From positions 98,644-162,643 of the forward strand of contig CBDFMW010000002.1 in the NCBI GenBank assembly GCA_965249825.1: 64,000 bases of DNA. The letters run 5' to 3'. Of the stretch, positions 5,432 to 41,676 are shown piece after piece. Position numbers and translations under genes: made by a program. The stretch's first letter is position 1. Each line of letters opens with the position of its first letter. A model generated the notes under the pieces. The model was not told where the DNA came from. It did not search any database and saw only the letters and a program-made list of their open reading frames with translations. Origin of the DNA: Spirochaetia bacterium. GTDB taxonomy: Bacteria; Spirochaetota; Spirochaetia; WRBN01.

Positions 5432-5512
5432 AGCGACTCCTTTTATGCCTACAGTGTAGCATACTCTTGCATATAGTAGCTAGCCCAGTCATACCGTCTT
5501 ATCAGTCTTTAG

Positions 5513-7582
5513 GTGAATTACCAAACAATACTTAAGGAAGAAGGTCAAAAGATGGGTAAAAAAGTGAATCTGTTTAACTACAGAGCCTCCAAGGCGGAAG
5601 GTAATAAGCATATTACAATTAATGAAAACTTGCTTACTAAAGAGTTTTTAGGATTGTTAAGGGTGATGAATAATCATGCTTTAATGGAGGCGTTGTGCGG
5701 GCATAATTTGTGCTGGGCTAATCATCATGAGCATGAATATGTTGTTGAGTATACAAATGTAGAGATTGATCAATCCAGACCAGATGGTATGATTGCCTTA
5801 AAACATGCTGATGGTACAACCGAGGTGCGGCTGTTTTTTGAAAACAAGGTGGATGCGCCATTACGGGCAGAGCAACTGAACCATTATTTAGACAGCCATG
5901 CCACACAGAAACATGATCGGCTATTGGTGGTTACTCCTCGTATTCATGATAAACAAATAGTGAAGGGCATGGGCGATGAGCGCCTTATTTTTCACACTTG
6001 GGATGACGTGGCTAAGCTTTTAAAAAAACATGGTAAAACGAATGCTACCGAAGAGCGATTGGTTACCCTCTTTTTGGAGGCGATGGAACATTTGGCTGGT
6101 TGCTCGGAACTTACCCCAGAAATTATTAATGATAGCAATTTTGTTCAAATGAACCAATTTATGACTAAGGTGCTGGATAATATAGATCTCTTGGCGTATG
6201 GCGTGAAACTCGCCGGACGTTTTGACAATTTCGGAGGCCTTTATTCTTATCTCTTTAGGGGCGATCGTTGCCATGACTCTTTTGCTAATCTAGGTGCTTA
6301 CTTTTACACCGATGATTTCGGCATTCCCTTAAAAACAGAAGGCGTGCCTGAATTTATGCTTATGTTCTCTATCCTCCCGAATCACCAAGAAAAGTTGATT
6401 GATGATAAGCTTAAAGCGATTGTTGACACGCTCGTGAAGAATGGTTTTGAGAGCAACCTAGACGGCGATGTCATCACTAATAAACGGCATATGCTCTGGT
6501 ATCGCCAGCCCATCACATCGTCCTTCACCGTTGATCAAGCGTTAGAGTTTACCAACACCGCCTTCGCTTTGTTAGCCCAAGCTGGGGCTTTTGCCCATCC
6601 TTACTTTAAATATCTGAAAACCGCCAAGTGGAATGGACTAGTCCATAGCTGGGCTAATCATATGAACGAACAGTATTTTTTAGGGCATGATGATGAGGCA
6701 CACCCTCTTGGGTCCAACACCTTTTTGGGTTACTACTTTACCCCTACCCCTGATAATGATTGTTTATGGTTTGGCGTACATCATGATGCGCAAGCGTGGG
6801 AGCTGCCCCTGCTAGAGGAAGGGCAGCCTGACCTGATGTTTATCTGGTGGCTGTATGATGAGACAATGAATAACGATCCATCGCTACAAGCTTTGGTGCA
6901 ACAACTCACCCAGCAAGGCTTTGAGTTATTGGTGTCGCCAGCACATGAAGGGTGGCACTATCTTGGTTATCGCAAAACTTTATTGGACGGCGACGATGAA
7001 GCTCAGCACGAGCAAGCGGTGGCTTTTACCCAAGAGATGTTTGCTAAAATGAACCAAGCTAAAACGTTTGACCATCCGTACTTTGCATGGATAAAAAATG
7101 CCAACTGGACAGCCCTAGCCGACAGCTGGGCGAACAAAATGGACTCATCGACCTTTGAACCACACCACAGCCCTTGCGAACGGTTAGGCGGTCCGATTAA
7201 TGGGTATAGTTATAACCACAATGATGAGCGTAGTCCGGGTGCTACGTTACAATGGTTTGGGGTGATTAACGACCCTGCAGCATGGGATTTAGAACCTTTA
7301 ACCACAGGGCAACCCGAGCTTATTTTTATTTGGTGGATTGATGAAGAAGTGATCAACAATCCCTTGTTCCAAGAGCTGTTGATCACCCTTAAGAAAAGTG
7401 GGTTTGATTTCGGGTATCACACAAACGAAGGCTGGTACTTCATCAGCTACCGCCAAACTTTGCAAGACGGCACGGACGACGCCCAGCTAGCCCAAGCGTG
7501 GGCGTTTACCGAAACTATGTTTAAAGTGATGGAAGAAGCCCAAGCTTTTGGTCATCCTTATTTTAAGCAGTTTAAAGAGTAA
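5513..7582 (+). CDS. hypothetical protein: N-terminal PD-(D/E)XK-like nuclease motif plus three tandem ~165-aa repeats each ending in HPYF
   Basis: 689 aa; RPDGMIAL...FFENKVD matches PD-x(n)-ExK; repeats ...AFAHPYFKYLKTAKWNGLVHSWANHM / TFDHPYFAWIKNANWTALADSWANKM / AFGHPYFKQFKE with conserved WFGV..D..AW.L.PL..GQP.L.FIWW. Confidence 0.55.
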   Translation: MNYQTILKEEGQKMGKKVNLFNYRASKAEGNKHITINENLLTKEFLGLLRVMNNHALMEALCGHNLCWANHHEHEYVVEYTNVEIDQSRPDGMIALKHADGTTEVRLFFENKVDAPLRAEQLNHYLDSHATQKHDRLLVVTPRIHDKQIVKGMGDERLIFHTWDDVAKLLKKHGKTNATEERLVTLFLEAMEHLAGCSELTPEIINDSNFVQMNQFMTKVLDNIDLLAYGVKLAGRFDNFGGLYSYLFRGDRCHDSFANLGAYFYTDDFGIPLKTEGVPEFMLMFSILPNHQEKLIDDKLKAIVDTLVKNGFESNLDGDVITNKRHMLWYRQPITSSFTVDQALEFTNTAFALLAQAGAFAHPYFKYLKTAKWNGLVHSWANHMNEQYFLGHDDEAHPLGSNTFLGYYFTPTPDNDCLWFGVHHDAQAWELPLLEEGQPDLMFIWWLYDETMNNDPSLQALVQQLTQQGFELLVSPAHEGWHYLGYRKTLLDGDDEAQHEQAVAFTQEMFAKMNQAKTFDHPYFAWIKNANWTALADSWANKMDSSTFEPHHSPCERLGGPINGYSYNHNDERSPGATLQWFGVINDPAAWDLEPLTTGQPELIFIWWIDEEVINNPLFQELLITLKKSGFDFGYHTNEGWYFISYRQTLQDGTDDAQLAQAWAFTETMFKVMEEAQAFGHPYFKQFKE

Positions 7583-7634
7583 CGACTCAATTTTTTATAG
7601 CCAAGGGGAGGGCAACCTCCCTTTGCCCCATGGG

Positions 7635-8876
7635 TTACAGTAAGCTATCCAACGGCTCGGTAATGTCTAGCGTGTCGTAAAATTTGCTAAACTGCAGCTG
7701 TGTGCCAATGGTGTCATTCGGTTCTATCAGCGTGGCGCGGGCAAGGCGAACATGGTTCAAGTTCACTAATATTTCATCGCCGGTAGGTGTATGAAACAGT
7801 TTAAAGTGATGGGCGGTGGTTAAAAAATAAAATTTTTCTAAGGGTTGGGTGCAGGGCATAAACAGGTTGTCATCGGCAAAGGTGATGAGTGTGCCATCAT
7901 CGTGGGTTTGGATACGGCTCACTTGGTGCAGATTGATAAACACCCGCAACTCAGGCGATGTGTGCTTCATGGGTATGAAAAAAGGCAAAGAGAACAACTG
8001 TTTTAAAGGCAGGTTTAACACATCAGTGTGCGTTTTTAACAGGTAGGTAACATGGCTACGCCACACCACACGGTCATCTTTAATAATGTGCCGTGTGCAG
8101 CTCACATAACTCATCAGTGAAGGGTTCACCACCACAGGTAACCCTTCATGGGTAAACCCGCTTAACAAATACGTTTGCTTTTTGCGCCATAGCCGGTGCA
8201 GCTTGGGCAATACTTCAGGCACTTTGTAAACTTCACCATTCACTAAGGAAAACACACTGTTTTTGTCAGCAGGCTTGCCAGAAGGCATAAGACTGGCGAC
8301 AAACTGGCTATTAAGTCCATAGCGGGAACCCTGCCCGTCAGGTAACCAGATAAAGGTCCGCCATGCTTTACTCCACAAAAAACGTAAGCGGGGTAAGGAA
8401 AGCGGATGAAACCAAAACTGTCCATCTAAGGAGTGAAGATGACTAAAGCGACGTTTGGTGGGCTGTTGTAAGCTGGGGCTAGCCCCACGCAGCAGTTGGT
8501 GAGTGGAGCTAGTGGCACGGCCCCGTTGCACAGCTAGCAACCGACTGATGTGTAAATAGTAGGGGTCGTCTTGGTGTAAAGGGGCAAAAAACTGTTTAGG
8601 TGAAAAGCGTTTTAGCATAGCCCATGAACGCACCATAGGAGCTATGTGTAAAATGTGCTGAATGGACTGGGCAATGAGCAATCGAGGCGTGAGCGAATCA
8701 GGCCAATCGCTCAAACTAAGCCAGCTTATAGAGTCAGCATCTTCGGCTGGTTTCAGCGTACGCATAGCCTCCATGAACGTCGGGTTCACTAAGATGACTT
8801 GTTTATGACTTTGGGTACGGGTGGTTTCAATCAAAGAAATAAACCGCACTTGTTCAGAGAAGGTTTTTTTTAGCAT
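7635..8876 (-). CDS. hypothetical repeat-motif family protein (413 aa)
   Basis: Motif copies VILVNPTFMEA, VVVNPSLMSYV, VFINLHQVSRI, ILVNLNHVRLARATLIEPNDTI; paralog of ORFs 9509 and 12210. Confidence 0.55.
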   Translation of the reverse strand: MLKKTFSEQVRFISLIETTRTQSHKQVILVNPTFMEAMRTLKPAEDADSISWLSLSDWPDSLTPRLLIAQSIQHILHIAPMVRSWAMLKRFSPKQFFAPLHQDDPYYLHISRLLAVQRGRATSSTHQLLRGASPSLQQPTKRRFSHLHSLDGQFWFHPLSLPRLRFLWSKAWRTFIWLPDGQGSRYGLNSQFVASLMPSGKPADKNSVFSLVNGEVYKVPEVLPKLHRLWRKKQTYLLSGFTHEGLPVVVNPSLMSYVSCTRHIIKDDRVVWRSHVTYLLKTHTDVLNLPLKQLFSLPFFIPMKHTSPELRVFINLHQVSRIQTHDDGTLITFADDNLFMPCTQPLEKFYFLTTAHHFKLFHTPTGDEILVNLNHVRLARATLIEPNDTIGTQLQFSKFYDTLDITEPLDSLL

Positions 8877-9487
8877 GAGGCATTAAACAAGTTTGCAACC
8901 TGCTGCAACTGGGGTAAATCTTGGTTTAAAAGAGCTTCATAATTGGCTTCAATGGTTTCAATAGGCCAGTTCCACCAGTTTAAGGTGAGCAATGCCGCCG
9001 TTATCTTGGCACTAAAAAGTGGACGAATAACCACCGCAGGGCTACCCCCCACAATGGTGTATGGGGGTACATCTTTGGTAACCAACATAGTACTGGCAAT
9101 GATAGCCCCATGCCCAACAGTGGTGCAACCCTTGCGGTTAAAGTGGCGGTCATCGGGAATAGCATCAGGACTCACGCCATCTTTCCAAAATAAAGAAAAG
9201 GTGGTGAAGGCGTTGGTGTGATGTTGACCATAGGGGCAAATAAACGTGGCATCAGAGGCAATTTGGCAAATTTTACCAATAATTAGTTGAGGGGGGGCGT
9301 TAGGGTTAGGGTCATCATACAGCGCCTTGGTGTTTTCAACCTGTGCCACTTCGCCGTTGTGGTCGTGATAGTAGCTGTAATCCCCCACTTGGATGTGAGC
9401 TTTGGTGATAAAATGCTTTAAAAAGATCAAGCTGGTCAATGGCGTGCCACTGATGTGAATGGGGTATTTTTGCTTTTTATCAAACAT
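8870..9487 (-). CDS. xenobiotic (XAT-class, Vat/CatB-like) hexapeptide-repeat O-acetyltransferase
   Basis: 205 aa; KYPIHISGTPL...IQVGDYSYYHD and C-terminal VTKDVPPYTIVGGSPAVVIRPLF...LNWWNW match CatB/Vat family throughout. Confidence 0.85.
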   Translation of the reverse strand: MFDKKQKYPIHISGTPLTSLIFLKHFITKAHIQVGDYSYYHDHNGEVAQVENTKALYDDPNPNAPPQLIIGKICQIASDATFICPYGQHHTNAFTTFSLFWKDGVSPDAIPDDRHFNRKGCTTVGHGAIIASTMLVTKDVPPYTIVGGSPAVVIRPLFSAKITAALLTLNWWNWPIETIEANYEALLNQDLPQLQQVANLFNASC

Positions 9488-9508
9488 CCTGCACCGTCCT
9501 CTTAGTTA

Positions 9509-10750
9509 TCAATTATCGGCTGGTTCTAAAAGTGTCTTAATCTTAGATAGCGATTCTCGCACCAAAAGCGGGTCATGACTACTGAGCAACACCAGCTGAG
9601 ACGTTGCAGTATCTGATGGATTGATAAAGACGACCACCACCTGCTGGGCATTAATTAACAAGGGGAGATCGCTTACGCTTGTCTCTGGAGTTAGCGTGAG
9701 AAGTGGGATGGCAGAATGGGAGAATAACTGGCTTATTAATGCGGTTAAATCGGGTTCACTCCACAGGGTTAGGCTTGAACCAAATGCTAAGATAATGGTG
9801 TAGTAGAGGGCAATTTGGTATCCGCCTTCAGTATCTTCATTCACCTGTTTGCTGGGCAACACACTTTCAATATGCTCGGTGTTAATGAGCATCGAGCGTT
9901 GGTTGTGAGCATTTAGGAATGGGCGAAATAAAGGGAAAGCGTTGCTAAGCAAGTTGGTGAAGTAGAGCATGGTGTCGCTCACCTGAAATGCGTCACCAGT
10001 GCCGATAAAGGTGAGCTTGGTGAGCCACACAATATCATCGCTTTGGGGTAATAGATGGCGCCCGGTGGTAATAGAGGTAACCATGGCTGGGTTAATAAAG
10101 CGCTCTTCGGTGGCTTTATCGCCCACATAGAAAAACTGCACTTTAATAAAAGCTTTCGCCGTTAAGGTGATCAGCTCGTCAATACTTGTGCTCACAAAGA
10201 GTTCATGCCCTTGTTGAATAAAGCCAAGGCGTGAGCCGTATATGATTTGACCGTTTGCATCTATCATAGGGCAATGAGCAATCCAGCGGATGAGACTGGT
10301 TTGCACCAACACTTGCGCCCCATGTGGCATGGTCAGCGATACAGTGTCTGCCTTAAAAAATAGTTGCAACTGGTGCAAGGGTGTGGTGATGAGCAGGGCA
10401 GGATGGTCGTCGGTAAAATGACATTCACTGTGCCAACTGATGAGACGCTGGCGCTTGTTGGTTGTTTTTTGGGCTAAAATGTAGGTAACAAGCGAGCTGT
10501 TGATAAGTACGGGGTCGCCTGCACCATCAATGGCATCAATAAAATGCGATGACATTGCCATGATCGTGTGACGAATCTGCTCGATAGGTTCGGTGATCAG
10601 CAGAGTACTCATACGAAAAGAGAGCGAGAGAACACTGCAACGCTGCATTGAGCCGTCATTTTTTTCTATAAGCGTGGGCTTAACACTGTTAATGTGGGCA
10701 ATATTAACCAAGATAGCTTGCTCTTTGAGCGGGTGCAACATTACAAACAT
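9509..10750 (-). CDS. hypothetical repeat-motif family protein (413 aa)
   Basis: AILVNIAHINSV, PVLINSSLVTYI, ERFINPAMVTSI, SMLINTEHIESV, VVVFINPSDTAT motif copies. Confidence 0.55.
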   Translation of the reverse strand: MFVMLHPLKEQAILVNIAHINSVKPTLIEKNDGSMQRCSVLSLSFRMSTLLITEPIEQIRHTIMAMSSHFIDAIDGAGDPVLINSSLVTYILAQKTTNKRQRLISWHSECHFTDDHPALLITTPLHQLQLFFKADTVSLTMPHGAQVLVQTSLIRWIAHCPMIDANGQIIYGSRLGFIQQGHELFVSTSIDELITLTAKAFIKVQFFYVGDKATEERFINPAMVTSITTGRHLLPQSDDIVWLTKLTFIGTGDAFQVSDTMLYFTNLLSNAFPLFRPFLNAHNQRSMLINTEHIESVLPSKQVNEDTEGGYQIALYYTIILAFGSSLTLWSEPDLTALISQLFSHSAIPLLTLTPETSVSDLPLLINAQQVVVVFINPSDTATSQLVLLSSHDPLLVRESLSKIKTLLEPADN

Positions 10751-10845
10751 GGGGATGGGGTCGTCTCGCTTTTACTTTAATTTTAGTGAAAAGCACAGGG
10801 GGTGTCAACTCAGTTAAACATTACCTCGAGCTTCATAGTAGAAGT

Positions 10846-26728: not shown

Positions 26729-26766
26729 AATGGGTAAGTCTCCAGCAAGGTAGAGGGTGAAAAGAA

Positions 26767-26838
26767 GCCAAAACTGGGAATTGAACCCAGGACCTACTCG
26801 TTACGAGTGAGTTGCTCTACCGCTGAGCTATTTTGGCG
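26767..26838 (-). tRNA. tRNA-Thr (anticodon CGU)
   Basis: Cloverleaf on minus strand: acceptor GCCAAAA/UUUUGGC, T-loop GGTTCAATTCC, anticodon loop CU-CGU-AA; one A.C mismatch at 31-39. Confidence 0.75.
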
Positions 26839-27815
26839 TATAACCCCTTCACCATAAAATATAACGCTCTTTTTGTCAAGGGGAAAGGTTTTGGTTGACT
26901 AACGACTAAATGTTTTTTGATTTCATCATAGACTATAGCAGGAAGAGCGGTTTTAGTGAAAGCTTTATCTAGTTTCTTAGTTTCATTCTTTTGAGCCTTT
27001 TCTAATTTTTCAAAGGAGGATTGCAAGTAAGGTGATTTTTTACTTATTTTTTGCATAGCATCAAAAATCGATTGTAAAGATCTGGTGTTCTTCGCAAATC
27101 TTTCACCGTATATGCGTTGATTGTGAGCACAGTGATTTCTTAGTGTAGAGAATGCCCACAAATCCTTTTCGAGTTTTTTTATATCTTTGTTTAGGTGTTT
27201 TGTGTTTTTGGGTTGACCTAGAAGTACAACGATGTTTTCTTTTAAGTCCTGCGGTAAAATTTGGTAGAACTTACTGAGTTTGCCAAATGTAAGTTCATTA
27301 ACCAATATCCATATCGGAACATAACCATGATTTTTTGGATCGAGATAGTGGGTTATATAGGGGATTTTTGTTCTGCTATTTTTAATTATAGTCTGAAATT
27401 CTTTAATTACCTCTTTTGTTTCTTTATCTGTAGGATTAGGATAGTTCTTCGGGTCGCAAAAAAATGTGTCTTTATAGCTGTCGTGCGCATGATTCTTAAA
27501 GTAGTGAGCCACTTGATAGCCAATGATATTTTTAAGAAATGCTTCAATATATAGCAACTGGGTTAGGTAGAGTTTACGCAAAGCACCATCAAATTGATAG
27601 AGGGTATGGATTTGAAAGAGTGATGTTCCTGTATGATATTGGTTCGTACGAGTATCCGCTAGAAATGGTTTACCAAAGGAGTTAATGAGCGTGTAGTAGT
27701 TACATTGTTTTAAAATAGCTAAATCAAAGTTATAATTTTTGGGTATCCCTGATAGATTCCGTTTGTAAAGCTGTTTTAGTTGCTCTTCATGAGTTAACGG
27801 AGGTTTTTCTGCCAT
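26817..27815 (-). CDS. Abi_2 family (AbiD/AbiF-like) abortive-infection HEPN protein
   Basis: 332 aa; hallmark STLRNHCAHNQRIY (R-x4-H) and Abi_2 N-terminal helical region; 3' end overlaps tRNA-Thr 5' end. Confidence 0.8.
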   Translation of the reverse strand: MAEKPPLTHEEQLKQLYKRNLSGIPKNYNFDLAILKQCNYYTLINSFGKPFLADTRTNQYHTGTSLFQIHTLYQFDGALRKLYLTQLLYIEAFLKNIIGYQVAHYFKNHAHDSYKDTFFCDPKNYPNPTDKETKEVIKEFQTIIKNSRTKIPYITHYLDPKNHGYVPIWILVNELTFGKLSKFYQILPQDLKENIVVLLGQPKNTKHLNKDIKKLEKDLWAFSTLRNHCAHNQRIYGERFAKNTRSLQSIFDAMQKISKKSPYLQSSFEKLEKAQKNETKKLDKAFTKTALPAIVYDEIKKHLVVSQPKPFPLTKRALYFMVKGLYAKIAQR

Positions 27816-28362
27816 TTATATCAAACCTCCTTATCGAGACAAAAAAAACATCCCGATTTTCAAGAGGTTATCTTGAAGGATAAGGATGTCCCCACCAAAT
27901 TCATGGTGTCTCTTATCTTAAGTATAGCCTAAATAGGGCAGGGTGTCAAGCATGGATTCTGTAAGAATCTAATAAACTGGTTGTGAGGGGTGGAAGACAA
28001 GCTAGACGAAATAGTGTACACTCTTTATAATTTGAACGCTGAAGAACGAGCGGTGGTGAGTGGGGGGCGGAGCTGATGGGTGGGGAGTTGACAAGCGTGC
28101 TTAATTAGCGTATCATTAGGGTGGAAGGATTTTGGTTACTGCATGTTAAGTTTTATTCTTAATGAATAAGAGGGAGATGCGTTTTGAAATCCGGATTCTT
28201 TAATATATAATATTAAAATGACGGATTTTAGAATTAAGAACGAGGCTAAGTAATATTGGTCTTTAAGCAAGGTAGTTGAGAAACACTATTGGATTTACTG
28301 GGTTCAACACGGTAACAACAAAAAATCTCTATAAGACAAAGCCCGCCTTTTGTGGGCTGTTG

Positions 28363-29181
28363 TCATGTGTGCCTTAATCCATCATTTAAATAAATGTTCA
28401 CATGACTTGCCTTGATGCGTACTTTTTCCTGTGTTCTTCCATTGAAAAAATCGCTATCAATATTTCCATCACTTTCTATTTGCACATCATAGTGATGACC
28501 TGCACCGTAACGATACCCAAAGCGATAGTGACCACTTAAATAGTAATGAGCGGAATCGGTAGACTTGTTGTTTAAGTCCCCATGCTTGTGGTTACCATAA
28601 AAAAATAGGCGTTTCTTACGATCCTGATACCCTTCCTTTTTAGCTGAGTTTGCCTTGACAAATTTAAAAGGATTGGCTATCGTAGGATTTAACTCTTCTT
28701 TGCCGAGATACACAGCCTTTAGGTGTGCTTCAAAAGCAAAGCCATTTATTTTTTCGTCAAAATTTTTGATTGGCAATAAGTAAACGTGATTATTTCTTAG
28801 TTGCTTCGCTCGTATGTTGTACTCCACAGCTTTTGATATAGCCGTAGACCATAACTCCTCATTTCTATAGTGCTCACTAGATAGTGGTTCTATAGAGCGG
28901 ATAGAGGCAAAAGGAAAAAATAACTCTAACAAAACATCGCAATTCGCATCCTTGTGTTTTACATAGATAAGCTGAATAAACTTGTATGTATGTCTTTTAA
29001 CAAGAGGCAAGAGTAAGTCTTTAAAATACTTATTAATAGGTTCTACGGTGTATTTCGGACTAATTTCATTTACTGGCATAAAAGCAAAATCATGATTTGG
29101 ATGTTTTTTTTCTACTGCCTCAGGTAATTTAACACAGAGTGTTTTATTTAGCCCTGCTACAATAACTAACGTTTTAGCCAT
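28363..29181 (-). CDS. hypothetical protein (AT-rich islet, downstream gene of 2-gene module)
   Basis: 272-aa ORF, markedly lower GC than flanks, 3 bp after upstream ORF stop; hairpin terminator at ~28337-28360. Confidence 0.5.
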   Translation of the reverse strand: MAKTLVIVAGLNKTLCVKLPEAVEKKHPNHDFAFMPVNEISPKYTVEPINKYFKDLLLPLVKRHTYKFIQLIYVKHKDANCDVLLELFFPFASIRSIEPLSSEHYRNEELWSTAISKAVEYNIRAKQLRNNHVYLLPIKNFDEKINGFAFEAHLKAVYLGKEELNPTIANPFKFVKANSAKKEGYQDRKKRLFFYGNHKHGDLNNKSTDSAHYYLSGHYRFGYRYGAGHHYDVQIESDGNIDSDFFNGRTQEKVRIKASHVNIYLNDGLRHT

Positions 29182-29184
29182 TTG

Positions 29185-29640
29185 CTATTTATGCTCTCCC
29201 AGCAAACTCTCTATCAGCCATACTGGAAGTTGTTTATCCTTATGTTCACTGGGGATACGGTCAAGCACTTTTTGTAATAAAGAAACATCGTGAGCCTTTT
29301 TCTTTGTTTTGACAGAACTTGGCACACTCATTTGATTATCAGTGCCATTTAAAAGTTCGTCTATGCGTGTTTCGTCCTCGTCTTTGGCAACGGCAATAAC
29401 TAGAGGGTTACTGTTTGCATGAACAAGTTTTTTTAAAAATGTATGTTCTTTGATTTTATCTTTAAGCTTCTCTTCGCCTAAAAAATCATCTAGGGAATGT
29501 TTTCCATATTCAGAAATCAATCTATTTCCAAGCTCTGCCGCCAATAGAACTTTAATGGGTTTTCCATCTTTGTTGTATTTATCACTATTGTAAAGCTTTT
29601 CTGTAAACCTTCTGAACTTTTCGATATTTAACTCACTCAT
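29185..29640 (-). CDS. hypothetical protein (AT-rich islet, upstream gene of 2-gene module)
   Basis: 151-aa ORF, Lys/Glu-rich. Confidence 0.5.
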   Translation of the reverse strand: MSELNIEKFRRFTEKLYNSDKYNKDGKPIKVLLAAELGNRLISEYGKHSLDDFLGEEKLKDKIKEHTFLKKLVHANSNPLVIAVAKDEDETRIDELLNGTDNQMSVPSSVKTKKKAHDVSLLQKVLDRIPSEHKDKQLPVWLIESLLGEHK

Positions 29641-29963: not shown

Positions 29964-30404
29964 ATGACATACAAAGCCATTATTTGGTTAGAGAGCAACG
30001 GGACCTACAGCGTGATGTTCCCAGATTTTCCCAACTGCTTTAGCATGGGTGATAACCTAGCCGAAGCACGGCACTATGCCCATGAAGCACTCGATTTGCA
30101 TTTAGAAGACAACCCTGTCAAGGGTTTTGCTCGTCCATCGCTCACGGTGAATAAAGACGCATTAGGGGTAGCCTCCGAGTATAGCGAAGTGTGTGATATC
30201 AAAGTGAGCAAGAACAAGGCGTTTGCTCTTAAATTGCGTTGGTTACGCCAAGATTTAGGGCTAACGCAAAAGACCCTAGCCGAGTTGTTGCATATCGGTT
30301 TATATGCCTATCAACGCCTAGAAAACCCTCGATTAAGCAACCCTACCATGAAAACAATCGAACAACTAGAAGCGGTGATTCACCAAGAGTTGGTTACTGT
30401 TTAA
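29964..30404 (+). CDS. HicB-family antitoxin-like protein with C-terminal XRE-type HTH
   Basis: N-terminal YSVMFPDFPNCFSMGDNLAEARHYAHEAL (HicB/UPF0150 fold); C-terminal LRWLRQDLGLTQKTLAELL HTH. Confidence 0.65.
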   Translation: MTYKAIIWLESNGTYSVMFPDFPNCFSMGDNLAEARHYAHEALDLHLEDNPVKGFARPSLTVNKDALGVASEYSEVCDIKVSKNKAFALKLRWLRQDLGLTQKTLAELLHIGLYAYQRLENPRLSNPTMKTIEQLEAVIHQELVTV

Positions 30405-31306: not shown

Positions 31307-32695
31307 ATGGATTTTTTACTTGAACAAGAGGGATTAATGTCAATATTGTTGATGGTGGGGGTGGGATTTTTAGCCCTACTGATCCTCATTCCGTTGTTTT
31401 TTCGGCGTGTGGTGCGCACAAATGAGGTGCATATTGTGCAGTCATCAAAAAGCACAACCAGCTATGGCAAAGACACCGACAATGGCAACACTTACTATGA
31501 GTTTCCCTCATGGATGCCGAAAATTGGTGTTACCAAAATTATTTTGCCTACCAGCGTGTTTGACCTCGATTTGAGCAGCTACGAAGCCTATGACAAAGGT
31601 CGTCTGCCGTTTGTGGTGGACGTGAAGGCCTTCTTTCGCATTTCAGACAGCAATTTGGCAGCCCAACGGGTGGCCTCATTATCTGAGTTGCTGGATCAAC
31701 TGCGTGCCATTGTGCAGGGTGCGGTGCGTGTTATTTTAGCCACTAATGAAATTGAAGAGATTTTACAAGGCCGTGCCTCGTTTGGCGATCAGTTTACCTC
31801 CGAAGTGCGCGAGCAGCTGGCAAACTGGGGCGTTAGCACGGTTAAAAACATTGAGCTGATGGACATTAGAGACAGCAAAGACTCTTACGTTATCTCTAAT
31901 ATTATGGAAAAGAAAAAGTCGCTCATTGAGATGGAGTCGCGGACGGAAGTGGCAAAAAATAATCGGGTGGCCCAGGTAGCCGAGATTGAAGCCAAGCGCG
32001 AGGTGGATTTACGTGCGCAAGATGCCAAACAGCAGGTGCAGGTAAAAACCGTTGAGGTTCAGCGCGACATTGCTCTGCAGCAAGAGGCCAGCAATCAAGA
32101 AGTTATTGAGCAGCAACGCACCACTAAGGAAAAAGAGATGGCGGTGTTGCGCGTAGAAGAGGTGAAACGTACCGAGATAGAGCAAGAGGTGAGCGTTATT
32201 AAAGCCGAGCAAGACAAACGTGTGCGCATTACCGCCTCTGAGGGTGACAAAGCCGCCGTTATTCTCATTGCCAGTGGAGACCTTGAAGCCAAAAAAATGG
32301 GGTCCGAAGCCATTCGCCTTGAAGGTGCAGCCCGTGCCGAAGCCGAAAAGTCGATGCAGCTTGCCTCCGTGCAGGCGCAAGTGGAGCTGGCTAAAGAAAT
32401 TGGTGAAAATAAGTCGTATCAAGACTACCTCATTAGAACCAAAGAGGTGGAAGCCAACCAAGCCGTGGGTATTGAACAAGCTAAGGCGCTGGCTCAAGCT
32501 GAGATCAAGATCATCACCAATGCTGGCAGCCCCACCCAAGGCATGAGCAACGTGATGGATCTGTTCAGCAGCACCGGTGGCACCGGCGTGGCTTCGATGT
32601 TAGAAGGCATGGCCCAGTCGGAAACAGGTAAAAGCCTGCTTAACGGACTAACCGGCCGCCTAGCTGGCAAGAATGATTCGCCACCCGTGGTGTAA
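31307..32695 (+). CDS. flotillin-like SPFH/band-7 membrane protein
   Basis: N-terminal TM, SPFH domain, long Ala/Glu/Gln-rich coiled coil. Confidence 0.8.
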   Translation: MDFLLEQEGLMSILLMVGVGFLALLILIPLFFRRVVRTNEVHIVQSSKSTTSYGKDTDNGNTYYEFPSWMPKIGVTKIILPTSVFDLDLSSYEAYDKGRLPFVVDVKAFFRISDSNLAAQRVASLSELLDQLRAIVQGAVRVILATNEIEEILQGRASFGDQFTSEVREQLANWGVSTVKNIELMDIRDSKDSYVISNIMEKKKSLIEMESRTEVAKNNRVAQVAEIEAKREVDLRAQDAKQQVQVKTVEVQRDIALQQEASNQEVIEQQRTTKEKEMAVLRVEEVKRTEIEQEVSVIKAEQDKRVRITASEGDKAAVILIASGDLEAKKMGSEAIRLEGAARAEAEKSMQLASVQAQVELAKEIGENKSYQDYLIRTKEVEANQAVGIEQAKALAQAEIKIITNAGSPTQGMSNVMDLFSSTGGTGVASMLEGMAQSETGKSLLNGLTGRLAGKNDSPPVV

Positions 32696-32714
32696 CTACA
32701 CGCACGCATTTTAA

Positions 32715-32747
32715 GAAAAACCCTGCTAGCAAAGGCAGGGTTTTTTA
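32715..32747. terminator. bidirectional rho-independent terminator (also left copy of 30-bp direct repeat)
   Basis: agaaaaaccctgc-tagcaaag-gcagggtttttt. Confidence 0.75.
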
Positions 32748-33593
32748 ATACCGTTGCATGAACTTGTTGTTATCTACACGAGCACCGCTAAGTAAATCGT
32801 ACAATGGATTGTCTAGCACGCTACCAACTGTGGTCTGTCTTTCGTTAGCGTTTGAGACCAAGAAACCAAAAGGATCGATAATGACATAGGATGACTCTAA
32901 ATCATCCTGTTTTTCGATGACCAGTCGGCATGATGCATCCACCCCTTGGCAATAAAGAGTAAATTCATCATCACTAAGAGCTAAATCGCTAGCATCGGCG
33001 TTGCAATTTGCTTGAATGCGTACTTGCAAAATCTTGATACGATCAAACGCAACATCTCTTTACATCTGGTTAATATTTTTGTGTTTATTGCTCTGGCTTA
33101 CCACGGTGTTCACTTTAAGTTTAAACCTTTTTTCTTTAGCATACTGCAACACCTCCACAAGATTCTTGTAATCTAATGTCTGTCCGTTCCTACAACTCCT
33201 ACCGATGATAACATTGGTTTGGTTATCAAGACTATCAATACTAATTCCTATCATATCCACTTTATCTTGCCAGTTATCAATCACCTGCTTTGATAGCAAT
33301 GTGGCGTTGGTAATGACAGATACCGCTATTTTTTTGCCCACAATATAGGTAATCAGCTCGTTTAAGAAGGGTACAAGCATAGGCTCACCCCCCGCAACAT
33401 TTATACGCCCGTCCACAATACCGCACTGCCTAAAATAGTGTTCAATGGCATCCCCCACACATCTCCACTCTTCTAGCTCTAGCTCACCGTTCTCGGGCAA
33501 ACTATCTGAGGCATCAAAACGGGCAAAACAGTGTTTACAACTGTAGTTACATCTCTGCGTGATGTGTAAGTTAATGACATTAAACCCATTCAT
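32745..33593 (-). pseudogene. prokaryotic viperin-like (pVip) radical-SAM enzyme interrupted by a single in-frame TAA at 33060-33062
   Basis: CNYSCKHC radical-SAM motif; viperin-specific blocks INVAGGEPML, ISIDSLDNQTNVIIGR, FKLKVNTVV, then after the stop ...SCRLVIEKQDD..SYVIIDPFGFL aligning to the viperin C-terminal domain. ORFs 33060..33593 and 32745..33029 are in the same frame. Confidence 0.65.
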
Positions 33594-33595
33594 CT

Positions 33596-34831
33596 TTAAA
33601 ACACCCCCAAACTTTTCATTAATGAAAACAACGCCAACCCTATAGAAGCTACCGATGTCGCTGTGAGAACCACGATGACTTTTTGTAGCTTTTTCGTAGT
33701 GGTCGCAAAGGTTTGCTCCATCGCCTCCACTCGCTTCATGTCTTCAATCGCTGTGGCATTAAGGGCGGTAAACCCTTGCATTTCATCGGCTACTTTGCTC
33801 ACTTCCGCCTCCAGTTTGGCGGTAAGGGCTTGGTGTTTCTCCTGCACTTCATCTTTAAAACTGGCGACTGTTTTGTTGGTGGTCTCAAGCTTGGCGGTAA
33901 GGGCTTGGTGTTTCTCCTGCACTTCGTCTTTAAAACTGGCGACTGTTTTGTCGGTGGTCTCAAGCTTGGCGGTAAGAGCTTGATGTTGCTCTTGCACATC
34001 ATCTTTAAAACTAGCGACAGTTTTGTTGGTGGTCTCAAGCTTGGCGGTAAGGGCTTGGTTTTGCTCTTGCACTTCGTCTTTAACAGTAGCGACGGTTTTG
34101 TTGGTGGTCTCAAGCTTGGCGGTAAGGGCTTGATGTTGCTCCTGTACTTCATCTTTAAAACTAGCCACGGTTTTGGTTATATCGGACTGAAGGGCTTGAC
34201 GATGGTGTAACACCTCGTCTTGAACGTTGTCTAAAGTTCTACTAAGCTGGTCTATTGCTTCCGAATTACCGCTACTACACCGATCCAACTCGACTATTTT
34301 AGCATCAGTTTGACTATGTTTTTCAGCATTCCGAGAGCCACGCTCATTAACATCTCGGTATATGGTTTCAAGGTATTGTTGTGTCTCCTCGGTTATATTC
34401 GTATCACCTGAACGTATTAATTTAATAACAACATCTTCTTGTTTCTTGCGAGTATCTTCAGAGTTACTATGTTCATCGCCTAGGCTTATAAGCCTACCGT
34501 CCACATAATCAAAGCAATACAGAAAAAACTTGATTGATTCTTGAACCAATTCTACGATTTGCAAGTCTGCTTTAGCTGATGCAATCAAACCTTCAGCTAA
34601 CAACTCATCACGCGCCTTACTTTTACCCCATCCCACATTGTATACTTCGTGCGCTTTAATTCCTTGTTCACTGATCGTTTTTTTGGTTTGATCAATACCT
34701 TTCATTAGCCCTTTTAGGTGTTTTTCCTCATCATTAGAGTTGGTGAGTCTGCTCAAGCGGCGCTCAGCAAAACGATCTTTATTAGACAGTACTCCTAACC
34801 ATTCATTATCATTATTTTCCATTTCACTCAC
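33596..34831 (-). CDS. C-terminally membrane-anchored coiled-coil protein with five 25-aa tandem repeats
   Basis: 411 aa; repeats KTVASFKDEVQEQHQALTAKLETTN; C-terminal TM VIVVLTATSVASIGLALFSLM; strong RBS AAGGAGTGAG. Confidence 0.6.
   Translation of the reverse strand: MSEMENNDNEWLGVLSNKDRFAERRLSRLTNSNDEEKHLKGLMKGIDQTKKTISEQGIKAHEVYNVGWGKSKARDELLAEGLIASAKADLQIVELVQESIKFFLYCFDYVDGRLISLGDEHSNSEDTRKKQEDVVIKLIRSGDTNITEETQQYLETIYRDVNERGSRNAEKHSQTDAKIVELDRCSSGNSEAIDQLSRTLDNVQDEVLHHRQALQSDITKTVASFKDEVQEQHQALTAKLETTNKTVATVKDEVQEQNQALTAKLETTNKTVASFKDDVQEQHQALTAKLETTDKTVASFKDEVQEKHQALTAKLETTNKTVASFKDEVQEKHQALTAKLEAEVSKVADEMQGFTALNATAIEDMKRVEAMEQTFATTTKKLQKVIVVLTATSVASIGLALFSLMKSLGVF
33790..34200. repeat. 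75-bp coding tandem repeat array (~5.5 copies)
   Basis: ggcggtaag(g/a)gcttg recurs at 33818, 33893, 33968, 34043, 34118 (period 75). Confidence 0.9.
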
Positions 34832-34865
34832 TCCTTGTTAATCGATTTTTTATCCCGTTTGTTTC

Positions 34866-36562
34866 TTAGTACAAACTGTTTTCTGGAGACTGCATCATCT
34901 TTTTAAATTCCGCCTCACGCTCTGCCCTGCTAACTGCTACCGAATGTTGTACGTCCTCTATATGATCATTAAACTGTTGCTTGAACTCTGCGGATCTTTG
35001 TTCTACCTCCGCAGATCGTTGCTTCGACTCCGCCATTCGTTGATCAACATAAGCATAGCCTTCAGCAATGTTATGATAGGTCTGCATCATGGCATACTGC
35101 GGTAATTTACCAGATAAAGAGACAAGTTGAAATTTAATCTCTAAGTCTTTGTTTCGGTTATGAAACTTATCCATATAGTACAAAACAATGGTGGTTACCA
35201 ACCCACCTACAAGACTAGACAGCACCACGGCAATCGCATCGCTCACAGTTCTCTCACCAAAAAGGGGGAACAACATTAAAGGCTGAAGACCGGGGATTGC
35301 CAATAATAACTTCTCAATAGCCTCTGCCAACGCCAGCGAAAGCACACCAATTAACCCTGCGATTAATACTTTTACGGCTTGGTAACGCACCTCTTCCTTA
35401 GGCATTCCAGCCGGTGGGTTAGCCAATATTTTCATGGCTTGCACCAAAGAGACAAAGCCAGCTCGAATCATCTTAACAAATCTCTTTAAGGTGGTGGCAA
35501 ACATGTTGATAACAAACACCACCATGTTAGACAAAAAGGCGGTGATAGCCTGCCCAATGCCGTCTTTAAACAGATCTTTAAACTTGTTTTTTATGTTCTC
35601 AAACGCTTGATTTAAGGATGTTTTGAATCGGGCAACCACCTCTTTCAAGTTTTCATTGCCTTTGTTCTTAAATGTGGCGCGAACCTCTCTAAACACCGCC
35701 TGCACCACCTCTATCAAGGCTGGCGCCAGCATGGCGTATGCCCCCACATACATAGCATCTTTGGCTCCGGTAGACAACAGCTCTTTACCTTGCTTGTTAA
35801 AGAGGGCTTTATCTCCCTCCTTCTTTACATGTTTTTTGGCTTTGTCGTACTCTGCGGTAACCAGTTTCATGTCTAAATCATAGAACTCGGCATTGGTTTT
35901 TCCCGTTTTGCCATGGGGCTTGTTTGCCCACACCAACAGATCCTGATTACCCTTGGACTGGTTGGCACTGGAGCTAATGTAGGTGAGATTGACGGAATCG
36001 GTGGTAACTTTTGCCCGTTGCTCCGCTGTCATCCCCAAGTTCAGCTTAGGGTTTCGCTCAATTTCGGCAGCTGAGATGACATGGTCTAGGTGAGTTGAGA
36101 CATCTTTGTTTAACACCTTGCCAGTGTAACCATCTTTAATAGTCTCATTTTGCTGAAAGTCTTCTTTGCGTTGTTTATTAAAAGATTTACCATCCACTTT
36201 ATCGTAATCACTGCCTTATCGTAATCGCTGTTTTTTCTGTCATAATGATTCGTTTCCATGTATTTCATGTGGTCTTCATTACTCGCGGTTACGCCCTGTT
36301 CAAAGTTATGCACGGTGGTAACGTTACCACCATCAATGTTGGTCAACATCAGCGATGCTAGCCCAAACTGTCCCTTAATGGTGTCTAACACCACCTCTTG
36401 GCACAGCACCAGCAAAGATTTCGTCTCATTCGTCGACAATTGCGACTGCAACCTATCCATTTCAGCCAGCGTTGCTTCCAGCTCGGCATCAACCTCAATT
36501 GTAAACCCCTCTGTGGAGTCACTTAATCCTTCCAGCAGCCCTTCATCCGTTTCAAACCCCAT
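34866..36562 (-). pseudogene. HNH-nuclease-domain protein with C-terminal 4-TM region, split by frameshift from a 17-bp tandem duplication
   Basis: ORFs 36110..36562 and 34866..36197 both encode SDYDK in different frames across the duplicated ttatcgtaatc(a/g)ctg (36199-36213 and 36216-36230); HNH-like block LDHVISAAE...NLTYISSSANQSKGN. Confidence 0.5.
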
Positions 36563-36650
36563 TAGAACCTTGAGACCATCCTGTCAACCTCATTTCCCAC
36601 TTTAAGTTATAAAACAACCCTCCTATATAAAGGAATAAAGGCACTTGCCA

Positions 36651-36683
36651 AGAAAAACCCCGCTGGTAAAGGCAGGGTTTGCC
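36651..36683. repeat. right copy of imperfect 30-bp direct repeat (27/30 identical to 32714-32746)
   Basis: agaaaaaccccgctggtaaaggcagggttt vs agaaaaaccctgctagcaaaggcagggttt. Confidence 0.85.
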
Positions 36684-36853: not shown

Positions 36854-36882
36854 TTGACAATTGTTGAGGTGTGAGCTATAGT
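36854..36882 (+). promoter_or_regulatory. near-consensus sigma70 promoter upstream of 16S rRNA
   Basis: TTGACA (36854-36859), 17-bp spacer, TATAGT (36877-36882); A-rich UP-like region upstream. Confidence 0.7.
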
Positions 36883-37098: not shown

Positions 37099-38644
<1,546 letters not shown>

Positions 38645-38799: not shown

Positions 38800-41676
38800 A
38801 TGAGAGAGGATAGTATGGATAAAAATGTAGGGCTATCGACTGAAGAGATTTTGAATAGCAGGCAAACGAATGGATCTAATCTTTTAACGCCAGCCAAAAA
38901 CCCATCATGGCTGTGGCTTTTTTATCAAAAATTTGATGATCCCATTATTCGTATTTTACTCATTGCTGCCTTCATATCTATAGGCGTTGGCTTTTTCGAT
39001 GGTCACTTTATGGAAGGCATAACAATCATTATTGCGATTTTGATGGCAACTGGGGTGGCTTTTGTCAATGATTTGGGGGCTCAACGTCAGTTTGATGCCC
39101 TCACACTAATCGCAAGTGATGTTCTGTATCGGGTTTTACGCAATGGGGTTCATACCGAGATTTCAAAAAGTGAAATTGTTGTAGGTGATATTCTTTTTTT
39201 AGAGCGCGGAGCTGAGATTCCTGCTGATGGTGTTATTTTAGAGGTGCAAGCAGCTCTTGTGAATGAGGTCGCCCTTACTGGTGAATCTCAAGCCGTAGTT
39301 AAATCAATAGAAGAGCTACTAACTAAAAAAACAGCTTTGTCCTCAAATAAGGTCTTTCGAGGGACACACATTGAAGAGGGATCGCTTTCTATGCGCGTAG
39401 AAAAAGTAGGGGATCAAACATACATTGGGCAGTTAGCTACGCTCACGATGCAGGACAGCGAAGTAGAAACCCCACTCAATAGGCAACTAACGGGGCTGGC
39501 CAAGGCGATGAGCGTTATTGGTTTTTCGAGTGCAGGTCTTATTTTTGGCTTGCTAATTGCTCGTGATATTAGAGAAGGCTTTATTATTTTCCCTTCTCAC
39601 GCCCAATGGTCGGCATGGCTGGTGTTTTTTTTAGGCTTGGTCGTGTTTGCCCCAGTATGGTTAGCTATTTTAGCCGATCTTCTTGAACTCATTTCTCCTT
39701 TATCTACTTCAAAATACCAATTTTTTCGGATAACAAGTTTTAAAAGAGGGTTTTTTCTTGTTATCCTTATGGTCACTCTCGTCGTATTTTCGATTTTCTA
39801 TGTTGCCTTTATAGATAGTTTAACCCTAATTGAAGCGGTACAATACTTAAAAAGGGGCGTTGTGGATGCTTTTAAGGGGAGTAATGGCCTTCAGCTTTTA
39901 GAGCATTTTATGGTGGCGATGACTATTTTGGTGATGGCTGTACCGGAGGGTTTACCCCTCAGTGTAACTTTGGCACTCTCCTACAGTGTTAAATCTATGC
40001 TGCGTGGAGGTACTTTAATTCGCCACATGCATGCTGCGGAAACATTAGGGGCCGTTACAACTATATGTACTGATAAAACAGGCACACTTACGCAGAGCAT
40101 AATGAGCATGAATCACGCCAGTCTTACTGCTAGCGATGAAATGGGCTGGGTGTGCTTGGCTGTTAATAGTACGGCAGATTTGAGTCATGATATGGGAATT
40201 ATCGGTAATCCAACTGAAGGAGCTATCCTTGTGTATATTAATAAACACTTGGGCTTAGATTATGATGAGCTGCGTCGCCGTGCCACTAACATTAAGCAAG
40301 AACCCTTTAACTCTGATCGTAAATATATGGCATCATCTTTTAGGGTTGATGGGCTTGACATTGTTACCATTAAAGGTGCCCCTGAAGTGGTATTAGCTCG
40401 TACTACTGTCACCGATGAAGTGAAAGAGTGTTTACTTGCCGAAATAAAGCAGTTTCAGGCTAAAGGTATGCGTGTGCTAGGTATCGCTTATAGAGATACA
40501 ACTAATGAGGCTGGAACTGTGTTGCGTAACATGAGCAATTTACTATGGAAAGGATTTATTGTATTGAGTGATCCCTTAAGAAGTGAGGTTCCTAGCACAA
40601 TAAAAGTCTGTCACAAAGCAGGAATTGATATTAAAATGGTTACAGGAGATAATCTAGATATTGCAGTCGAGATAGCAAGACAGGCCCATATTTTACCGCA
40701 TGACTTCACTTTTGATATTGATACGCGCGCAAGAGTGAAGGAAGGATCGGTATTGACAGGAGTAGAGTTTGCCGGATTATCTGACGCTGAAATCTTGATT
40801 TTATTAGAAGAAGGTAAGCCACATGTTGTCGCACGATCGACACCACAAGATAAAATGCGTTTGGTTACGCTTCTTCAAACTTCCGGTGAAGTAGTGGCGG
40901 TTACGGGTGATGGTACAAATGACGGCCCTGCGCTTAATCATGCTGATGTTGGTGTGGCGATGGGACTCACAGGCACGGCTATTGCAAAAGAAGCAGCTGA
41001 CATTATCATAACTGATGACAGTTTTGTAAGTTTGCAACATGGCATTTTGGGTGGACGTAGTTTATATTCAAATTTACAACGTTTCATTTTATTTTTACTT
41101 ACCATAGGAATAGTTGCACTGCTTTTGGTGGTTATAACCAGCTTTTTGGGGTGGTTTTTACCCTTAACGGTGATTCAAATTTTATGGATTAACATAATGA
41201 TGGACAGTTTTGCCGCACTGGCCCTATCTACTGAGGCAGTTGATCCTCATGTGATGGATAACCCCCCAAGAAACAGTAGTACGTTCATTATTACACCACA
41301 GATGGCGATTGAAATGGGTCTAATGAGTGCAGTTATACTGGCTCTTGCCTTGTTTTTTATGCAGAAATATGGCAGTCAACCATCGCTTCTTCAATTGACC
41401 TTATTTTTTAATATTTTTTCTTTTAGCCAGATTTGGAATTTAATTAACGTACGTTATTTTAATCGAAACATAGGGGATATGAAAGAATTTCTAAAAAACC
41501 CTATGTTTACAATCATTTTAATTATAATAATTACTGGGCAATGGATGATAACCCAGTGGGGCGGGTTGACCTTACGAACCACCCCGCTAAACCTTGAGCA
41601 GTGGTTTTTTGTGATTGGCATCACATCCCCAATTTTTATCATTCGAACTCTAATTCGAGTGGTTTTTAAGCGTTAA
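38800..41676 (+). CDS. P-type (P2, Ca2+/cation-transporting) ATPase
   Basis: DKTGTLT phosphorylation motif, TGES, VAVTGDGTNDGPAL, 8-10 TM segments; true start possibly Met at 38815. Confidence 0.9.
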   Translation: MREDSMDKNVGLSTEEILNSRQTNGSNLLTPAKNPSWLWLFYQKFDDPIIRILLIAAFISIGVGFFDGHFMEGITIIIAILMATGVAFVNDLGAQRQFDALTLIASDVLYRVLRNGVHTEISKSEIVVGDILFLERGAEIPADGVILEVQAALVNEVALTGESQAVVKSIEELLTKKTALSSNKVFRGTHIEEGSLSMRVEKVGDQTYIGQLATLTMQDSEVETPLNRQLTGLAKAMSVIGFSSAGLIFGLLIARDIREGFIIFPSHAQWSAWLVFFLGLVVFAPVWLAILADLLELISPLSTSKYQFFRITSFKRGFFLVILMVTLVVFSIFYVAFIDSLTLIEAVQYLKRGVVDAFKGSNGLQLLEHFMVAMTILVMAVPEGLPLSVTLALSYSVKSMLRGGTLIRHMHAAETLGAVTTICTDKTGTLTQSIMSMNHASLTASDEMGWVCLAVNSTADLSHDMGIIGNPTEGAILVYINKHLGLDYDELRRRATNIKQEPFNSDRKYMASSFRVDGLDIVTIKGAPEVVLARTTVTDEVKECLLAEIKQFQAKGMRVLGIAYRDTTNEAGTVLRNMSNLLWKGFIVLSDPLRSEVPSTIKVCHKAGIDIKMVTGDNLDIAVEIARQAHILPHDFTFDIDTRARVKEGSVLTGVEFAGLSDAEILILLEEGKPHVVARSTPQDKMRLVTLLQTSGEVVAVTGDGTNDGPALNHADVGVAMGLTGTAIAKEAADIIITDDSFVSLQHGILGGRSLYSNLQRFILFLLTIGIVALLLVVITSFLGWFLPLTVIQILWINIMMDSFAALALSTEAVDPHVMDNPPRNSSTFIITPQMAIEMGLMSAVILALALFFMQKYGSQPSLLQLTLFFNIFSFSQIWNLINVRYFNRNIGDMKEFLKNPMFTIILIIIITGQWMITQWGGLTLRTTPLNLEQWFFVIGITSPIFIIRTLIRVVFKR

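Follow-up and report, generated by a model that had tools for sequence, protein, structure and literature searches.

The window analysed here, a 64,000-nt stretch of contig CBDFMW010000002.1 from a Spirochaetia bacterium, contains a minus-strand block of three genes that spans about 3.9 kb from promoter region to stop and is bracketed by two copies of a 30-nt hairpin sequence. In the direction of transcription these are gene A (34866-36562), a frameshifted member of the PDC-M40B family; gene B (33596-34831), which encodes a coiled-coil partner; and gene C (32745-33593), a pseudogene of a prokaryotic viperin (pVip). The initial annotation had described a tightly coupled minus-strand operon with gaps of 34 and 2 bp, situated between a flotillin gene and the 16S promoter, and both the layout and the placement were confirmed. 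The left flank is formed by an SPFH/Band_7 'flotillin' gene identified by Pfam scan (31307-32695, plus strand). On the right, a promoter-like element detected by promoter scan (TTGACA-17-TATAGT, 36854-36882) lies ahead of a full-length 16S rRNA gene (37100-38639). The block starts 1 nt past the viperin stop and ends 88 nt upstream of the gene-A start codon.

As it stands, gene A is read as two overlapping open reading frames (ORFs) of 150 and 443 aa, split by an imperfect 17-nt tandem duplication (36199-36232, minus strand) with copies at 36199-36215 and 36216-36232 that are identical at 14 of 17 positions. Removal of either copy restores a single 559-aa frame, whose junction (...HYDRK(N/G)SDYDKVDGKSF...) aligns with intact homologues such as P0002. 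The two copies differ at 3 of 17 positions though the remainder of the gene is undamaged. A simple recent slippage would leave identical copies; template switching or an older repeat may account for the duplication.

The repaired gene-A protein matches PDC-M40B (PADLOC PDLC04630) with an E-value of 2.7e-71 over 432 residues (35-466; profile positions 1-445 of 547), and JukB only weakly (0.0035). Searches returned over 300 homologues (about 560 aa long, 40-51% identity) from Campylobacterota, Spirochaetota, Pseudomonadota, Bacillota, Verrucomicrobiota and Kiritimatiellia; their sources include Marinomonas, Sulfurimonas, Campylobacter, Paenibacillus, Treponema, Polaromonas and Thalassolituus. 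When 1.84 billion cluster representatives were searched with a profile, 1089 clusters (50% identity) matched at E<=1e-3, of which 410 passed E<=1e-30. Neither the viral contigs of IMG/VR nor the PHROG families yielded a match to gene A.

The gene-A protein was annotated from the outset as carrying an HNH fold together with transmembrane (TM) segments, and both features are borne out. Its layout comprises an N-terminal helical region, a His-Me/HNH-like domain of the DUF1524 type at residues ~80-250, four hydrophobic helices assigned by hydropathy (267-285, 333-351, 393-411 and 437-455), and a C-terminal coiled coil, which in the AlphaFold model corresponds to a helix of ~100 residues following the hydrophobic helices. 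The full-length model is confident only for residues ~80-250; a separate model of residues 60-262 reached a predicted local distance difference test (pLDDT) score of 86.9. The domain matched the fold of His-Me finger nucleases, including their beta-beta-alpha-metal arrangement. Across 60 aligned homologues, residues D154, H155, N186, N195, S197 and K198 are invariant (DH...N...N(x)SK), as is a long block of the hydrophobic region. Against the Pfam family GmrSD_C (PF07510), gene A scored 15.2 bits and its homologue P0054 19.8 bits, both below the gathering score of 23; P0054 matched GmrSD_C at 8e-4 and the DUF1524-bearing HEC-05 at 2.9e-6. Sequence-profile searches of the PDB with gene-A alignments returned nothing significant. 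Since no signal peptide is present, the nuclease domain would be cytoplasmic. Gene A is thus predicted to encode a membrane-tethered, His-Me/HNH-like nuclease, whose activity and topology we infer from its sequence and modelled fold.

Gene B, which appears intact, has two possible starts: a GTG, giving 411 aa and a gap of 34 nt to gene A, and the more probable ATG at 34822, giving 408 aa and a gap of 43 nt. The initial description of a repeat-containing coiled-coil membrane protein is supported on each count. A single C-terminal hydrophobic TM helix (residues 385-403, by hydropathy) lies behind a long coiled coil, and Tandem Repeats Finder (TRF) detected a 75-nt (25-aa) unit repeated in tandem 4.9 times at 33809-34175 on the minus strand, with 90% matches and a score of 573. 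Across loci, partners range in size from 213 to 411 aa, and expansion of the 75-nt repeat, which is a recent in-frame lengthening of the stalk, fits a stalk of variable length. A profile built from the genes located 3' of gene-A homologues elsewhere matches gene-B residues 40-104 (GWGKSK...VELVQESIKFF) at an E-value of 4e-11, and phmmer links gene B and 32 of these 3'-located genes into a single connected family. The match to PDC-M40C (PDLC04634) is weak (E 0.015); the corresponding partner from Kalamiella matches PDC-M40C at 1.5e-19 and does not cluster with the partner family of the window.

Gene C comprises 282 codons, beginning 2 nt past the gene-B stop. Prokaryotic viperins were reportedly described by Bernheim et al. 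in 2021, and profile searches agree with the first assignment of this radical-SAM gene as viperin-like. It scores 232.4 bits against NCBIfam NF038283 (cutoff 180) across profile positions 3-280 of 281, versus 74 bits, far under the family cutoff, for MoaA, the next family outside viperin; the PADLOC pVip model is matched at 3.6e-66. In an alignment of 17 sequences, consisting of the window protein and 16 homologues, gene C carries all 29 invariant columns, among them C15, C19 and C22 of the CxxxCxxC motif, G68-G69-E70-P71 (GGEP) and the C-terminal R-Y. The encoded protein has ~280 aa, with neither an N-terminal extension nor a TM segment, and its nearest relatives are only 47-51% identical. 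By family match and motifs, gene C belongs among the true prokaryotic viperins.

The coding sequence of gene C is interrupted by a sole in-frame TAA at 33060-33062 (codon 178). Most of the closer homologues in the same alignment carry Tyr at this position, so one TAT/TAC-to-TAA change suffices to explain the stop. This is a single lesion in 282 otherwise undamaged codons, which points to recent inactivation of gene C. Together with the frameshift in gene A, the stop bears out the suggestion that the cassette is decaying; as each of the two genes carries one lesion and is otherwise undamaged, inactivation of the operon appears to be recent.

The expression signals of the block are only partly as first reported. 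Strong ribosome-binding sites precede gene B (AAGGAG, ahead of the ATG at 34822) and gene C (GGGGGTG, ahead of its ATG). That of gene A is weak (AAGG), and the N-terminus of the gene-A protein is 10-18 residues shorter than those of its homologues. The 88-nt leader and promoter region (36563-36650, minus strand) contains a TTGGCA-16 nt-TATATA element abutting the right-hand hairpin copy, which was read by eye and was not called as a promoter by the scan tool. A 12-codon ORF (GTG...TTC TAA) lies in 36563-36605, where its terminal TAATG overlaps the start codon of gene A; this ORF may be a leader for coupling or a chance occurrence.

To place genes A and B in a wider context, 119 gene-A loci were considered (37 from genomes, 80 from metagenomes and 2 others), 69 of them with at least 2 kb of downstream sequence. 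A B-family gene directly follows gene A in 32 of 35 inspected genome-derived loci, either overlapping it or starting within a few bases to about 30 nt. No viperin was found downstream of a gene-A homologue at any of the 69 informative loci. The only radical-SAM matches near A/B pairs were of the SPASM-type maturase and QueE kinds: weak radical-SAM matches at L054/L055 and L109 resolved to these families and were rejected as viperins, and a weak radical-SAM match at the end of locus L121 contained no complete ORF. Judged by these neighbourhoods, A and B form a compact, self-contained two-gene module, of which viperin is probably not a part.

The immediate neighbours of the pair frequently include defence genes. 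Among 97 such neighbours in other genomes, PADLOC matches at E<=1e-5 comprised WYL (5), MADS mad3/mad8, PDC-S01, NsnA, Cas3c, HEC-05, Bunzi A and B, a type II restriction-modification (R-M) pair, AbiD, SspH and QatD; many A/B loci have ordinary metabolic neighbours. Distant homologues of the M40B protein, at 25-30% identity, still match PDC-M40B and occur with other partners. In one of them (L106) a JukA gene (1.7e-58) lies directly upstream; in four others (L035, L091, L094 and L097) TerB/LeoBC-like genes of ~200-230 aa occupy the upstream position, and PDC-M09A-like genes of ~340 aa follow the M40B-family gene at L106 and L119. The HNH/TM protein therefore appears to behave as a modular effector with differing partners. 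According to published work (10.1101/2022.09.17.508391), JukA senses infection and recruits effectors of varying kinds, some of them uncharacterised HNH proteins. The PDC candidates, put forward through 'guilt-by-embedding' because their genes lie within BREX, DISARM, type I R-M or Hma loci, are explicitly untested (Payne et al., 10.1101/2024.01.29.577857); our literature search found no paper on 'PDC-M40'. The neighbourhoods and the JukA-linked distant homologues support roles for gene A as a membrane-sited effector and for gene B as an adaptor or sensor.

In the Treponema zioleckii kT3 genome (L006), the A/B pair (about 4136-6650) lies between attC-like imperfect palindromes of ~100 nt, as one 2.6-kb cassette of an integron-like array. 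These repeats have ends CATAACAA...TTGTTATG, fold at -20.3 kcal/mol (z -4.4) and recur near 930, 2492, 3946, 6650, 7850, 8675, 9815 and 12150, with small ORFs between them; no integrase is visible within the 13.6 kb of this locus. Apart from this attC-like pair, no flanking repeats were found around A/B in other genomes.

The viperin likewise has relatives in a different setting. The three closest viperins located on long contigs (47-51% identity; L040, L041 and L043) all occur in the same four-gene cassette, around 5500-10800, in the order of a ~153-aa ORF, the pVip, an SF1 helicase of ~855 aa (Mokosh MkoA, 6.3e-69) and an ORF of 477-482 aa that matched no family. Neither gene A nor gene B is present at these three loci, and no published description of this viperin-helicase cassette was found.

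Taken together, these distributions run counter to the initial proposal of a novel three-gene pVip system. A PADLOC search of the three proteins assigned gene A to the catalogued PDC-M40B (2.7e-71), with gene B as its partner and a weak match of the latter to PDC-M40C (0.015), and gene C to pVip (3.6e-66). No homologous three-gene cassette was detected elsewhere, where the searches returned A/B pairs without viperin and viperins in the helicase cassette. The accompanying statement that described pVips are solitary or kinase-linked is incomplete: a nucleotide kinase is linked to 12% of bacterial viperins (10.1101/2023.09.13.557418), and HicA- and RelE-linked pVips have also been published (PMC10865869). 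A viperin behind a membrane-nuclease module is not among these published contexts (solitary, nucleotide kinase, HicA, RelE) and is to that extent undescribed. That the arrangement of viperin with A/B is unique favours juxtaposition over a conserved system.

The hairpin copies that bracket the block were reported by the initial annotation as 30-bp direct repeats with 27 of 30 identical positions, and repeat searching and folding confirmed them. Copy 1, AGAAAAACCCTGCTAGCAAAGGCAGGGTTT, lies at 32714-32743 and forms a hairpin common to the SPFH gene on the plus strand and the cassette on the minus strand; copy 2, at 36651-36680, is a degraded version with three substitutions. Identity rises to 28 of 31 if the preceding A is included, and sequence likeness ends at the repeat edges. 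The 30-mer has only these two matches in the window, against none expected from shuffled sequences. Its two 11-nt arms enclose an 8-nt centre; all three differences fall in the left arm and loop, flanked by identical stretches of 11 nt (left) and 13 nt (right). Copy 1 folds at -19.0 kcal/mol on the plus strand (z -4.9) and at -16.8 kcal/mol on the minus strand. Strong folding in either orientation, with a U-run flanking each side, identifies it as a bidirectional intrinsic terminator. On the plus strand copy 2 has a C.A mismatch, no U-run and a z of -0.35; on the minus strand it retains a G.U-containing stem, followed by UUUUUCUU.

Several other identities were considered for the repeat and set aside. 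It does not behave as a high-copy repetitive extragenic palindrome or miniature inverted-repeat transposable element (REP/MITE), nor as an attP site, as only two copies occur in the window and none was found in 125 fetched related loci or in IMG/VR. A terminus dif site was rejected since GC skew is positive across the whole window, with no sign switch at the repeat. An attC site is defined by R''/R' cores (RYYYAAC ... GTTRRRY) within an imperfect palindrome of 57-141 nt; the repeat in the window has no such cores and, being a 30-nt terminator with a perfect stem, is far shorter.

We consider it probable that the locus represents two unrelated, independent antiviral modules combined in one now-inactive, horizontally acquired operon flanked by a duplicated terminator. 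The accessory minus-strand operon would place both modules behind one promoter and ahead of one terminator. In the first module, the cytoplasmic His-Me/HNH-like nuclease domain of gene A would be tethered to the inner membrane by its four hydrophobic helices, and the gene-B product would act as the sensor or adaptor by which the nuclease is kept or let go at the membrane, the place of phage DNA entry, so that the inner-membrane complex could attack phage DNA at or near its entry site. In the second, the intact viperin would use radical-SAM chemistry to convert a nucleoside triphosphate into a 3'-deoxy-3',4'-didehydro (ddh) chain terminator, and the resulting ddh-nucleotides would stall the phage RNA polymerase and block phage transcription. 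The two modules would act in parallel and independently, providing a layered defence from one transcript, and their adjacency would be a defence-island juxtaposition found in this lineage alone. Selection on the operon would have lapsed recently, leaving one knock-out in gene A and one in gene C. The block itself was probably gained by horizontal transfer into the SPFH-gene terminator, with a second hairpin copy as the result; the left copy would still end both converging transcripts, and the right copy would persist as a decaying relic.

With respect to this history, the initial suggestion of a foreign, inserted cassette remains plausible. The third-position GC skew of gene A, -0.38 relative to the plus strand, is the extreme among the 45 genes of the window, where other genes of either orientation mostly lie between +0.05 and +0.3; genes B and C are near zero, and a block at 28.3-31.2 kb is near zero or negative. 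The exact fit of the repeats to the block and the skew of gene A together make horizontal acquisition plausible; the patchy spread of such accessory genes and another defence patch only 3-6 kb from the block add to this case. The most likely history is that the block inserted at the SPFH terminator and duplicated the hairpin. If so, the empty site in a relative should consist of a single hairpin followed by GCCATTTGTGAATGG.

A number of observations weigh against parts of this reading. In codon usage and GC content the cassette does not stand out in the window, which argues that its acquisition was not recent; the 10% difference between the two repeat copies also speaks against a recent arrival, and the repeat itself could have a different origin. 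The genes are tightly packed, with gaps of 2 and 34 nt, one visible promoter region and one terminator, so that all three are expected to be co-expressed, and co-expression in prokaryotes often signals a functional link. The distribution data alone are compatible with a lineage-specific recruitment of viperin by modular M40B-family proteins that have varied partners. The term 'defence', as applied to A/B, draws on PADLOC candidacy and neighbourhood and is to be read as a prediction; gene B reaches PDC-M40C at an E-value of only 0.015, and no PDC-M40A-like gene is present. Differences at 3 of 17 positions between the tandem copies in gene A are odd for a fresh slippage event. Both lesions are known from the assembled sequence alone.

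An alternative account of the repeats holds that the repeat-bounded block is a mobile cassette without a recombinase of its own, which integrates at terminator hairpins and leaves copies equivalent to attL/attR-type sites, through site-specific or hairpin-directed single-strand recombination by an enzyme provided in trans (Xer-like, integron-integrase-like or IS200/IS605-like). The exact bracketing from promoter to stop, within 88 and 1 nt, would be expected of such an element, as would the 11-8-11-nt geometry, which resembles Xer or hairpin sites; the carriage of an A/B pair between attC-like hairpins in T. zioleckii and the third-position skew of gene A point the same way. We nevertheless regard this account as unlikely. 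The hairpin occurs only twice in 64 kb and nowhere in the related loci or IMG/VR, it lacks attC cores and attC length, and the uniformly positive GC skew leaves no terminus at which a dif site would lie. No recombinase is encoded in the block, whose three genes leave no space for another, or among the 19 non-cassette ORFs of the window scanned with Pfam, no A/B locus other than the integron-like one has flanking repeats, and an ordinary terminator accounts fully for copy 1. A broader conjecture, that recombinase-less, promoter-to-stop defence cassettes integrate at and duplicate intrinsic-terminator hairpins, such that one hairpin serves as terminator and as recombination site for an enzyme acting in trans, is rather improbable; if true, it would represent a previously undescribed way to slot immune cassettes between converging or tandem genes.

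It is also quite improbable that the A/B pair is non-immune, acting as an accessory membrane complex in envelope stress, DNA uptake or processing, or competition, with viperin as the only antiviral component. Such a role would be in keeping with a defence assignment drawn from sequence, with scores that reach a Pfam family threshold for neither protein, with the lack of IMG/VR and PHROG matches and hence of a direct phage link, and with the ordinary metabolic neighbours at many loci. It is opposed by the PADLOC nomination from embedding in BREX, DISARM or type I R-M loci (10.1101/2024.01.29.577857), the richness of neighbours elsewhere in defence matches, the patchy cross-phylum distribution, the carriage in a cassette array and the pairing of distant homologues with JukA.

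That the three genes constitute one integrated defence system, in which for example the nuclease finishes ddh-stalled phage genomes or the membrane pair regulates viperin, would suit the shared operon (a 2-nt gap ahead of the viperin ATG, an internal ribosome-binding site, a common promoter region and terminator), the varied partners of M40B-family effectors, the published links of pVips to kinases, HicA and RelE (10.1101/2023.09.13.557418; PMC10865869) and the multigene cassette of the nearest pVips, but is highly improbable given viperin at 0 of 69 informative A/B loci, A or B at 0 of the 3 nearest pVip loci, modules that each stand alone in many phyla, and two knock-outs that fit lost selection on the whole block equally well.

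The surroundings of the operon hold further defence-related genes. An Abi_2/AbiD abortive-infection gene (26820-27815; Pfam 1.9e-36, PADLOC AbiD 2.1e-44) and a gene for a HicB-like antitoxin fused to a helix-turn-helix domain (29964-30404; PF15919, 1.9e-10) lie 3-6 kb from the cassette. The former belongs to a low-GC block at 26766-29640 (33-39% GC versus about 45% elsewhere), which adjoins a tRNA gene (26766-26837, minus strand) and in which two further ORFs of 272 and 151 aa matched no family; it resembles a defence islet in its own right, and a more obviously foreign one. The HicB gene is separated from the viperin by 2.3 kb, with thyX and the SPFH gene between them. As for the latter, the label 'housekeeping' given to the flotillin gene does not fit its relatives. 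Its nearest homologue in a search among 5.8 billion proteins has 67% identity, and the two closest homologues on long contigs (L044 and L045) sit on phage-like contigs that are not syntenic with the window, so that the SPFH gene may not be an ordinary housekeeping gene. Their surroundings hold dozens of small ORFs together with ERF, ParB_N, DNA ligase, RNA ligase and NAMPT genes. Exact look-ups with the gene-A fragment and the flotillin gene matched no contig, and the proteins of the window are singletons. On the other side of the cassette, a P-type cation ATPase gene (38800-41676) begins 160 nt past the 16S gene, and no 23S or 5S gene follows the latter, which indicates that the rRNA genes of this genome are unlinked.

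As the locus is inactive, its value is mainly that of a pointer to the A/B module and the viperin-helicase cassette. The former is widespread, with examples in defence islands, within an integron-like array and in some cases downstream of JukA, and is a good candidate for membrane-sited, DNA-cleaving defence; the latter, a conserved cassette of viperin and a Mokosh-like helicase, is revealed by the nearest relatives of gene C. The locus further adds a case of a viperin predicted to be co-transcribed with another defence module, and the hairpin duplication around it is a small clue to cassette insertion.

Comparison with known systems places each component near an established family. Gene C resembles described pVips in its full-length NF038283 match, its CxxxCxxC and GGEP motifs, the retention of all family-invariant residues and its size, and differs from them in being a pseudogene (TAA at codon 178) placed behind a membrane-nuclease module. 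With regard to PDC-M40, gene A is a PDC-M40B match, and gene B resembles PDC-M40C in position and architecture, with a coiled coil and a C-terminal TM helix. A PDC-M40A match was found neither among the three cassette proteins and the flanking SPFH protein nor at any locus inspected, and there are only 88 nt of room between the gene-A start and repeat copy 2. The subfamily represented in the window is a strict two-gene module with a distinct partner subfamily, to which viperin is appended here.

Among DUF1524 nucleases of the GmrSD, BrxU and HEC-05/06 types, gene A shares the DH...N...N(x)SK motif, the fold and weak GmrSD_C and HEC-05 matches. In contrast to these nucleases, it has no DUF262/ParB-like NTPase domain, its Pfam score is sub-threshold, and its nuclease domain occupies the N-terminal part, ahead of a four-helix membrane region and a coiled coil in one polypeptide. 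The block also resembles integron cassettes and genomic islets in having 30-nt direct repeats that bracket it from promoter to stop; unlike in integron cassettes, the repeat is an ordinary Rho-independent terminator, and the window contains no integrase, attC cores or array. With Juk, SNIPE and Zorya, the A/B pair would have in common the concept of an effector at the inner membrane with a helical partner, a likeness of principle and not of family. SNIPE is a membrane-bound GIY-YIG nuclease with a single N-terminal TM segment and a DUF4041 domain that cuts DNA during injection (10.1101/2025.11.03.685801), and gene A belongs to a different nuclease class with a different predicted topology. The MotAB-like ZorAB proteins of Zorya have no counterpart here. 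No JukA is encoded at the window locus, whereas distant M40B homologues are encoded right after JukA elsewhere.

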